Shown in pieces: positions 33,186 through 36,334 of a stretch of 64,000 bases of DNA. Source of the stretch: an uncultured beta proteobacterium. Lineage in GTDB: Bacteria; Pseudomonadota; Gammaproteobacteria; Burkholderiales; JAEUMW01. The position numbers and the translations under genes were made by a program. The notes beneath the pieces are model-generated. The model was not told the DNA's origin. It did not search any database and saw only the letters and a list, made by a program, of their open reading frames with translations. Every line of letters starts with the position of its first letter. Positions within the stretch are counted from its first letter, which is position 1. The DNA is taken from positions 326,099 to 390,098 of the forward strand of contig CAVTGS010000012.1 in NCBI GenBank assembly GCA_963734295.1. Direction: 5' to 3'.

Positions 33186-36100
33186 TCAAGCCACCGCCCA
33201 CTCTTGGCTGAGTAGCGCCGCCTGCTCCAGCACGGTCTGCGTCGCCTTCTCCTGCTTGTCGGGCGGGTAGCCGTACTTGCGCAGGATGCGCTTGACCAGC
33301 ACGCGCAGCTGCGCGCGCACGTTCTCGCGCAGCGTCCAGTCGATGGTGACGTTGGCGCGCACGGTCTCGACCAGCTCCTGCGCGATGGTCCGCAGCGTCT
33401 CGTCGCCCAGCACCTTGACCGCGCTGTCGTTGGTCTCCAGCGCGTCGTAGAACGCCAGCTCGTCCTCCGAGAGCCGCAGCGCCTCGCCGCGCGCGTTGGC
33501 CTCGCGCATCTCCTTCGCGAGCGCGATCAGCTCCTCGATCACCTGCGCCGCCTCGATGGCGCGGTTCTGATAGCGGCGGATCGTCTGCTCCAGCATCTCG
33601 GCGAACGAGCGCGCCTGCACGACGTTCTTGCGGCCGCCGCGTGCGCGAGCTCGCCCTTCAGCAGCTTCTGCAGCAGCTCCACCGCCAGGTTGCGCTGCGG
33701 CATCCCGCGCACCTCGGCCAGGAACTCCTCCGAGAGGATCGAGATGTCCGGCTTCTGCGAGCCCGCCGCGGCGAAGATGTCGATCACGCCCTCCGGCGCC
33801 ACCGCGCGCGAGATGATCTGCCGCACCGCGTGCTCGATGTCCTCCTCGGGCCGCGCGTCGCCGGGCGCGCGCTTGGCGAGCACCGCCTGCACCGCCTGGA
33901 AGAACGCCACGTCGTCGCGGATGCGCAGCGCCTCGTCGTGCGGCACCGCCAGCGCGAAGGCCTGCGACAGCTCGCGCACGGCGCGCACGCAGCGGTCCTT
34001 GCCGTTCTCCTGCGCCAGGATGTGCTCCTGCGCCGGCGGCAGCAGGCCGAGCCGCTCCTGCGGCGTCCCGGTCGTCCACTTCGACCAGTCGAAGCCGTGG
34101 AACAGCCCGGCGCAGACCTCGTACTTCTCCAGCATCACGGCGACCGCCTCGTCCTGATCGAGCGCCGTGCGCCCGGTGCCGCCGCTCTCGGTGTACGTCG
34201 CCAGCGCCTGCTTCAGCTCCTGCGCGAGGCCGAGGTAGTCCACGACCAGGCCGCCCGGCTTGTCCTTGAACACGCGGTTCACGCGCGCGATCGCCTGCAT
34301 CAGCCCGTGCCCGCGCATCGGCTTGTCGATGTACATCGTGTGCAGGCTCGGCGCGTCGAAGCCGGTGAGCCACATGTCGCGCACGATCACGAGCTTGAAC
34401 GGGTCCTTCGGGTCGCGGAAGCGCTTGGCCAGCGCCTCGCGCCGCGGCTTGTTGCGGATGTGCGGCTGCCAGTCGGCCGGATCGGAGGCCGAGCCGGTCA
34501 TCACCACCTTGAGCGCGCCCGTGCTCGTCGTCGGCGCCGTCCCAGTCAGGCCGCAGCTTCACGATCTCGCGGTACAGCTCGACGCAGATGCGCCGGCTCA
34601 TGCAGACGATCATCGCCTTGCCGTCCATCGCCTCCAGCCGCTTCTCGAAGTGCTCGACGATGTCCCTGGCCACCAGCTCCAGCCGCTTCTCGGCGCCGAC
34701 CACGGCCTCGAGCTGCGCCCACTTGGTCTTGAGCTTCTCCTTGCGCTCGACCTCCTCGCCCTCGGTCGCCTCCTCGAACTCGGGGTCGATCTTCGGCCGC
34801 TCGGCCTCGTCGAGCGCCAGCTTGGCCAGCCGGCTCTCGTAGTAGATCGGCACCGTGGCGCCGTCCTGCACGGCGCGCTGGATGTCGTAGACGCTGATGT
34901 AGTCGCCGAACACCGCGCGCGTGTTGGCGTCCTGCAGCTCGATCGGCGTGCCGGTGAAGCCGATGAACGAGGCGTGCGGCAGCGCGTCGCGCATGTGGCG
35001 CGCGAAGCCGTCGATGAAGTCGTACTGGCTGCGGTGCGCCTCGTCGGCGATCACCACGATGTTGCGGCGGTCGGAGAGCGTCGGGTGCCGGTCGCCCTTC
35101 TCCTCGGGGAAGAACTTGTGGATGGTGGTGAACACCACGCCGCCCGCCGCCACGCTGAGCAGCTCGCGCAGGTGCGCGCGGCTCTCGGCCTGCACCGGCG
35201 GCTGGCGCAGCAGGTCCGGCAGCGCGAGAAGGTGCCGAAGAGCTGGTCGTCGAGGTCGTTGCGGTCGGTGAGCACGACGATGCGTCGGGTTCTCCATCGC
35301 CGGCTCGCGGATGATGCGGCCGGCGTAGAACGCCATCGTCAGGCTCTTGCCCGAGCCCTGCGTGTGCCAGACCACGCCCACGCGCCGGTCGCCGGGCTTG
35401 CCGCCGGGCTTGCGGCCCGCCTCGTAGCGGCCTTGCTCGCCTCGGCGACCCGATCGGCCGCGCTGCAGCTCCGCCGCGCGCAGCGTCTCGCCCACCGCCA
35501 CCTGCACCGCGTGGAACTGGTGGTAGCCGGCCATCTTCTTGACGATGCGGCCGCCGTCGTCCTCGAACACGATGAAGTCGCGCAGCAGGTCGAGGAAGCG
35601 CCGCGGCGCGCACAGGCCCTCGATCACCACCTGCAGCTCGGGCAGGTGCGCGTCGGCCAGCGTCTCGCCCGCGATGGTGCGCCAGGGCTTGAACCACTCG
35701 CGCCCGGCGCTGAGCGTGCCCACGCGCGCCTCCACCCCGTCGGAGACGACGAGCAGCGCGTTCGGCGCGAACAGCGTCGGCACCTCGGCCTGGTAGGTCT
35801 GAAGCTGCTGGAAGGCGCTCCAGATCGTGGCGTTCTCGTCGGCCGCGTTCTTGAGCTCCAGCACCGCCAGCGGCAGGCCGTTGACGAACAGCACCACGTC
35901 CGGCCGGCGCGTGTGCTTGTTCTCCGCGACGGTGAACTGATTGACCGCCAGCCAGTCGTTGCCGCCGGCGTCGTCGAAGTCGATCACCCGCGCCTGCGCG
36001 CCGCGGATGCTCGCCGTCGGCGTCGCGGTACTCGACCGTCACGCCATCCACCAGCAGTCGGTGCAGCGGCGCGGTTGCGCGCGATCGAGCTCCGCGACCC

Positions 36101-36334
36101 TCGGGCCGCGTGAGCTTGCGGAAGGCGTCTTCCAGCGCCTCGGCGGGAAGCGCCGGGTTGAGCCGCGCGAGCGCATCGCGCAGGCGCTGGGCCAGGACCA
36201 CCTGCCCGTAGTCGTCGCGTTCGGCAGCCGGTTCGCCGGGGGCGATCTCGGCGCCGTTGCGGACCGTGCCAGCCGACGCTCTCCAGCCAGGCGAGCGCGG
36301 CCTGCTCGACGACAGACTCCGAGAATCGCGTCAC
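33186..36334 (-). pseudogene. hsdR: Type I restriction enzyme R subunit HsdR (copy A), at least 8 frameshifts
   Basis: HsdR sequence is spread over ORFs 35984..36577, 34546..36201, 33186..35987, 35051..35275 and 33539..34507. It contains [21 protein letters not shown] and [22 protein letters not shown]. Details are in the findings. Confidence 0.85.

Follow-up and report, generated by a model that had tools for sequence, protein, structure and literature searches.

Is the hsdR gene of an uncultured betaproteobacterium broken in the cell, or only in the deposited sequence? The window considered here, by which we mean the whole 64,000-nucleotide (nt) stretch at positions 326,099 to 390,098 of contig CAVTGS010000012.1 (GenBank assembly GCA_963734295.1; Burkholderiales, JAEUMW01), carries a gene for the R subunit of a type I restriction enzyme, and its reading frame as deposited changes ten times. 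We hold it very probable (about 0.92) that these ten frame changes arose as consensus errors in a metagenome assembly that is error-prone and probably built from long reads. On the sequence comparisons described below, the R-subunit gene is most likely intact in the organism itself.

Two overlapping features must be kept apart at this locus:

33195..36334, minus strand: hsdR, type I restriction enzyme R subunit, about 1,045 codons at full length once the ten single-base insertions and deletions (indels) are set aside

33186..35987, minus strand: the 933-amino-acid (aa) open reading frame (ORF) of the annotation track, a chimera of true-frame and off-frame stretches

The gene begins with a GTG codon at 36334 that overlaps the abiEii stop. 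When the 933-aa ORF served as the query, thousands of HsdR proteins were matched, the best of them about 1,046 aa long and 86 to 90% identical over the in-frame half. With an intact homologue (P0003) as the tblastn query, hsdR proved to be scattered across three frames, the true one being frame -3 at 36011-34518 and 33632-33195 and frame -1 at 34519-33644. A frame-aware dynamic-programming alignment of window positions 36400..33150 to the same protein showed nine frame changes across 1,045 codons, at an amino-acid identity of 93.4%, and no in-frame stop appeared in the frame-projected gene. At the DNA level, the window gene is 95.0% identical to its counterpart in G005, a second genome of the same genus, 94.4% to that of locus L010, and 91.2% to that of locus L009. 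DNA alignment, first with the two closest homologues and then with 75, placed ten single-base events, nine 1-nt insertions and one 1-nt deletion:

36266, minus strand: insertion of C, private to the window, beside the third position of codon 23; no homopolymer extension

36097, minus strand: insertion of T, private, in a patch (36067..36097) dense in single-nucleotide polymorphisms (SNPs)

36087, minus strand: insertion of C, private, in the same SNP-dense patch

36067, minus strand: insertion of G, private, in the same SNP-dense patch

36012, minus strand: insertion of G after codon 106, the sole window indel also present in the same-genus assembly G005

35283/35281 (placement ambiguous), minus strand: insertion of G or A, placed by DNA alignment with homologues

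35217/35218, minus strand: deletion, placed by DNA alignment with homologues

34520, minus strand: insertion of G after codon 603 (cac; cag in G005)

33644, minus strand: insertion of G, 11 nt from the next

33633, minus strand: insertion of C, 11 nt from the preceding one

About 21 out-of-frame codons are enclosed between the insertion at 35281-35283 and the deletion at 35217/35218; the base lost there, where G005 instead carries an insertion, is polymorphic among homologues (A/G, encoding Gln/Arg). From the insertion at 34520 onward, the annotated ORF runs off frame for 292 codons, and the insertions at 33644 and 33633 jointly restore its true frame. The initial annotation had hsdR hopping between frames at about eight positions. 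All eight were recovered in our alignments, but the count is ten: the sites given as 36095 and 33635 are real and comprise two events each, 10 to 11 nt apart. The same annotation held that the 933-aa ORF stays open only because the off-frames of GC-rich DNA (here 71% GC) lack stop codons, which its chimeric makeup bears out, and that the helicase and nuclease motifs between the shifts are intact. These can be read directly in the projected translation as nuclease D...ELK, helicase motif I TQGSGKS, DEAH (IADEAHRS), and FTGTP, so that the N-terminal PD-(D/E)xK nuclease and superfamily 2 helicase motifs I, II (DEAH), and III are all present in the frame-joined protein.

What, then, does the frame-joined gene encode? 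Its product is a full-length member of the HsdR family (TIGR00348; Pfam HSDR_N, ResIII, SWI2_SNF2, T1R_D3-like, and T1RH-like_C). It scores 597.5 bits against TIGR00348 (cutoff, 284.55), with the best stretch extending to profile position 671 of 674, whereas the deposited ORF scores 352.5 bits and ends at position 547. The protein is 93% identical to the intact HsdR of Accumulibacter and other metagenome-assembled genomes (MAGs). On the same strand of the island lie hsdM (49525-47792) and hsdS (47710-46553), recognized by Pfam HsdM_N, N6_Mtase, and Methylase_S, and the window HsdM is 94% identical to the HsdM adjoining P0003. The gene departs from its family in a reading frame that is broken ten times as deposited. 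An intact hsdR ORF of about 3.1 kb is found in 73 of 80 homologous loci of other genomes, and the multi-frameshift pattern is therefore unusual for hsdR.

Could hsdR nonetheless be a genuine pseudogene, with hsdR, hsdM, and hsdS all inactivated in the cell by real indels too recent for substitutions to have accumulated? We judge this distinctly unlikely, even though the setting resembles that of decaying restriction-modification genes, with multiple frame disruptions in a rearranged island ridden with insertion sequences (IS). Only these three genes are frameshifted in the 17-kb island, the passengers embedded among them being spared; the island is heavily rearranged, with three hsdR 5' ends, an IS21 element inside one remnant, and a chimeric hsdM junction; and the insertion at 36012 recurs in a second genome of the genus. 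The events themselves argue otherwise. Real bacterial indels are biased toward deletion and favor repeats, whereas nine of these ten add a single nucleotide, for the most part away from homopolymers. Once the indels are projected out, comparison of the window gene with L010 gives a nonsynonymous divergence (dN) of 0.024, a synonymous divergence (dS) of 0.170, and a dN/dS ratio of 0.141, without stops; pairs of intact homologues range from 0.11 to 0.22. If some 10 substitutions accompany each indel, ten neutral indels would come with about 100 substitutions, or a dN of about 0.03 on the window branch alone, and the total seen is 0.024. A true hsdR pseudogene would be expected to combine an elevated dN/dS, nonsense codons, and indels that vary in length and are mostly deletions; here there are neither stops nor a nonsynonymous excess, the indels are of 1 nt and nearly all insertions, and the same signature extends across the genome, essential genes included. 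Against G005 the ratio is 0.21, and past codon 107 it is 0.24 with a dS of 0.11. To judge from these ratios, hsdR is under purifying selection over the period in which the window and G005 copies diverged.

The extent of the signature was assessed by scanning all 36 contigs (4.55 Mb) of the window genome (G000) with a seven-state Viterbi segmentation (noncoding plus six frames), for which a codon log-odds model had been trained on 917 of the genome's own long ORFs with high third-position G+C. An event was defined as a direct frame switch on the same strand, with a minimum of 60 nt on either flank and no stop in the upstream frame as far as 45 nt past the switch. The scan found at least 1,146 such frameshift-like events in 704 gene chains, a density of 25.2 per 100 kb. 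The tally is a minimum, since the filters let through just three of the ten events in hsdR. The net shift is +1 in 983 of the 1,146 (86%), matching the 9:1 insertion bias of hsdR and unlike the homopolymer deletions that are usual in nanopore data. At least three events fall in each of 97 genes, with a maximum of 14 per gene. By comparison, the same detector and model returned a single event in 250.7 kb of the same-genus MAG G004 (260 contigs, 97% complete, 66.3% GC), or 0.4 per 100 kb. The window genome consists of 36 contigs, the largest of 1.05 Mb, and has 83% marker completeness; in our experience, high contiguity combined with low completeness is typical of long-read MAGs that contain indel errors.

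The damage is strongly overdispersed. Of 437 ten-kb bins, 123 are empty and the hottest hold 13 to 26 events; dense patches, reaching 26 events in 10 kb, lie for example at C11:40000-80000, C26:10000-30000, C4, C25:0-10000, C12:170000-200000, and C21:20000-30000. Event density climbs with local G+C: it is 0.03 per kb where G+C is under 60% and 0.6 per kb where it exceeds 72%. Both rpoB and rpoC are clean, another sign that the damage comes in patches. The acyl-CoA synthetase gene (30802-32309, minus strand), which directly follows the island on its downstream side, has a frameshift-like frame switch at 31621, and the ORF at 31445..32296 within it terminates in off-frame sequence.

An essential gene outside the window, accC, is affected as well. 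At C21:22332-23685 its coding sequence is spread across five frame pieces or more, and none of the matches attains the cutoff of the family; joined, it scores 683.8 bits across the whole profile. One intact accC above the cutoff is present in all 12 relatives searched, leaving the window genome as the only one of 13 without. In a DNA alignment of six congeners, it has six private insertions and no deletion, and the other five have neither. A family search found metH and cyanophycin synthetase to be multiply shifted and otherwise pristine. Judging from their translations, further genes in the same condition would encode the Mg-chelatase H subunit, Mg-protoporphyrin methyltransferase, and oxidative cyclase of the photosynthesis cluster on C11, as well as an RND pump, a GH94-like enzyme, and the nitrate reductase alpha subunit (narG). 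Real decay of a restriction system would not be expected to leave its mark on accC and some 700 other genes.

This breadth bears equally on programmed recoding, in which ribosomal frameshifting, transcriptional slippage, or quadruplet decoding would bypass the frame changes. Intact peptide segments are what such bypassing would leave, and nothing further speaks for it. No slippery sequence, homopolymer, or four-letter word is common to the ten sites (the contexts are caCg, ggTc, ctCg, ccGc, gcGa, gcAt, acGg, gcGc, and ggCc), the protein is encoded in a single frame in 73 of 80 homologous loci, and the same kind of event affects about 700 unrelated genes. We regard recoding as exceedingly improbable.

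How do other assemblies of the genus compare? G005 (60 contigs, 65% complete) offers a parallel case. In a five-way alignment, its hsdR carries 13 private 1-nt insertions, all at sites other than those of the window, plus the shared G at 36012, and a 60-kb sample of this genome contains 48 frameshift-like events per 100 kb. In contrast, no frame-breaking indel was found in the 2.25 kb of hsdR held by G003 (470 contigs, 96% complete). Were the window gene a pseudogene, G005 would require 13 independent insertions in the same gene. That two lineages should independently gain 10 and 14 frameshifts in one gene is implausible biology and, in our view, not credible, whereas two error-prone assemblies would produce exactly that. 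The initial annotation had left two explanations standing: several indels striking the gene in the very recent past, or local consensus errors in the assembly. The former is not supported, given the 9:1 excess of insertions mostly outside homopolymers, the dN/dS of 0.14, and the missing stops; the latter is strongly supported by the genome-wide load, the clean control, accC, and the differing insertions of the sibling assembly. It had also called the pattern unexpected for an old pseudogene and proposed weighing substitutions against indels relative to a close intact homologue; that comparison, made with L010, is unlike old decay.

The inserted bases themselves carry information about how such errors may arise. 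Insertions that extend a homopolymer number 2 of 9 among those private to the window and 1 of 13 in G005; with so few repeating the neighboring base, these are not slippage-type events. Instead, the inserted base often equals the allele that close relatives have in the adjacent column. In a permutation test, this was so for 5 of 9 window insertions (null mean, 0.89; P = 0.0007) and for 4 of 13 in G005 (P = 0.03). Thus the window reads cac followed by an extra G where G005 has cag, and gcc followed by an extra G where G005 has gcg; an extra C stands between ct and g where relatives have ctc or ctg; and C and A stand side by side between acg and tc where G003 has A. The insertions at 36087 and 36067 give C and G in tandem, both alleles being present in close relatives at the adjacent base, and the accC insertions at 23305 and 23469 follow the tandem-allele pattern as well. 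Several of the hsdR indels fall in SNP-dense patches (36097-36067 and 33644-33633). The permutation test took the place of an earlier one, which asked whether insertions abut a third codon position; all nine window insertions do, but two of the three junction types fit by chance (P ~0.03), and accC gave 4 of 6.

In collapsed-haplotype long-read assembly, nearby allelic variants misalign reads and thereby add indel errors and apparent frameshifts (PMC8445201), for which correction tools have been described (e.g., PMC12007338). The window genome resembles such assemblies in its pristine peptide pieces, single-base indels located at or near allelic differences, regional unevenness, and high contiguity with low marker completeness. 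Based on these allele patterns, we posit that reads from at least two closely related hsdR variants were merged into a single consensus and that at a SNP or SNP cluster the consensus would emit both alleles side by side, yielding a +1 insertion. The hsdR family may be unusually prone to this, having near-identical copies that circulate at 85 to 95% identity across many bacteria and, in the window genome, three short diverged 5' ends. High local G+C (71%) may further hamper polishing, and at hot patches such as C11 low coverage of accessory regions and GC-dependent polishing failure may contribute. Is the hsdR lineage really so widely shared? Its proteins are 75 to 91% identical among MAGs labeled as many phyla (L011-L090), the phylum and class labels including Proteobacteria, Chloroflexota, Acidobacteriota, Gemmatimonadota, Planctomycetota, Spirochaetia, Nitrospirota, Binatia, and Armatimonadota, which suggests an unusually recent and broad horizontal spread.

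Two simpler sources of error were considered and set aside. Paralogous hsdR copies in the window genome could cause mismapping, but only the three short 5' remnants in the island match, at 84 to 90% over 60 to 156 nt. GC content alone does not account for the pattern either: the genes for AbiEi (70.1% GC) and AbiEii (67.7%) are clean beside hsdR (70.8%), making GC a contributor at most.

Several observations weigh against the assembly-error explanation and should be stated together. The extra G at 36012 is common to the window genome and G005, where by a rough estimate only about 0.02 to 0.05 coincidences would be expected. Within the island, frameshifts are confined to hsdR, hsdM, and hsdS, with AbiE, DarTG, the OLD-type ATPase, and the two IS elements clean. 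No DNA match to the C11 photosynthesis cluster exists in five congeners, so that the mixed-variant mechanism does not readily account for every hot patch, and this leaves cross-recruitment of reads from same-genus genomes unsupported as a general cause of hot patches. Core regions of the congeners are only 80 to 87% identical. Finally, no independent copy of the lineage was found, in collections that may lack records close to the window genome: not by exact-protein lookup of AbiEi, not among metagenome contigs searched with a lineage-specific pattern tolerating the 36097 and 36087 indels, and not in a metagenome scan with a 36-mer of the abiEii 3' end. The gene-specific pattern fits real decay of a restriction system, yet the mixed-variant model would predict the same outcome, with hsdR, hsdM, and hsdS affected and the lineage-specific passengers clean.

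The shared insertion merits closer attention, given that it could be the one genuine lesion. It is unlikely, in our estimation, that at least one frame change is real, the candidate being the G at 36012, near the junction of recombined-in replacement hsdR 5' ends. A fuller version, in which this insertion inactivates hsdR throughout the lineage and the assembly is to blame for the remaining nine events, is very unlikely. It would explain why an identical insertion occurs in two separately assembled genomes, and codon 106/107 does lie near the end of the duplicated hsdR 5' remnants (about codons 113 to 119), where a recombination junction could have formed. However, the dN/dS of 0.24 downstream of codon 107 means that the insertion is not an old inherited inactivation, and two other routes lead to a shared insertion: a systematic error in the same context, or cross-recruitment of reads if the two genomes derive from a single data set. 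These are the most economical readings of the shared G. Were it real, the R subunit of a stacked defense island would be dead, with the toxin-antitoxin and nuclease passengers on its operon alive.

Between the hsd genes of the island lie the passengers, all of them clean: AbiEi/AbiEii, DarT/DarG, an OLD-type ATPase, IS21, and an IS with a DDE_Tnp_1_4 transposase. In addition, there are extra copies of the hsdR 5' end:

42926-42762: hsdR 5' remnant in the window island

40195-40004: hsdR 5' remnant in the window island

38046-37870: hsdR 5' remnant in the window island

Comparable arrangements occur in about 10 of 82 homologous loci, in MAGs labeled as several phyla. In these, an intact hsdR is preceded, at a distance of 0.6 to 3.5 kb, by a remnant (about codons 1 to 55, or to about codon 121), and a small passenger separates the two, as at L009:8785-8946, where the passenger is a RhuM/Fic gene, and at L014, L017, L019, L043, L053, L057, L085, and L090. 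From these sequences, it looks as if cassettes enter at the hsdR 5' end and bring a replacement 5' end along. The IS21 element (40184-42762) splits one hsdR remnant and is present in at least eight genome copies at 99.9 to 100% identity; the neighboring IS with the DDE_Tnp_1_4 transposase (42972-44608) has at least six copies at 94.5 to 99.7%. Both look recently active. In hsdM, which has frame changes near 48700 and 48275, the 'IDARxLG..RELTD' segment is repeated in diverged form at 48086-48262. The copies stand 123 nt apart (41 codons, in frame) and are separated by unrelated sequence; in contrast to the 1-nt indels, this repeat could be a real recombination scar. G005 has a simpler island (C30:32828-42523; L121 and L122) in the order hsdM, hsdS, DarTG, and hsdR, without AbiE or IS21, in a genomic neighborhood different from that of the window island. 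With hsdR 95% identical and core genes about 82 to 87% identical between the two genomes, the island has moved horizontally within the genus.

What follows for those who use this genome? It is the species representative in the collection searched, and it carries more than 1,000 insertion-type frameshifts in a patchy distribution. Calls of pseudogenes, decayed operons, split genes, or novel fusion ORFs in it are suspect, including those that involve hsdM, hsdS, the photosynthesis cluster on C11, narG, metH, and accC. Consensus errors that stem from mixed variants can be recognized in a simple way, from sequence alone, by the two alleles standing side by side. For the organism, the frameshifts alone provide no ground for calling this type I restriction system decayed.

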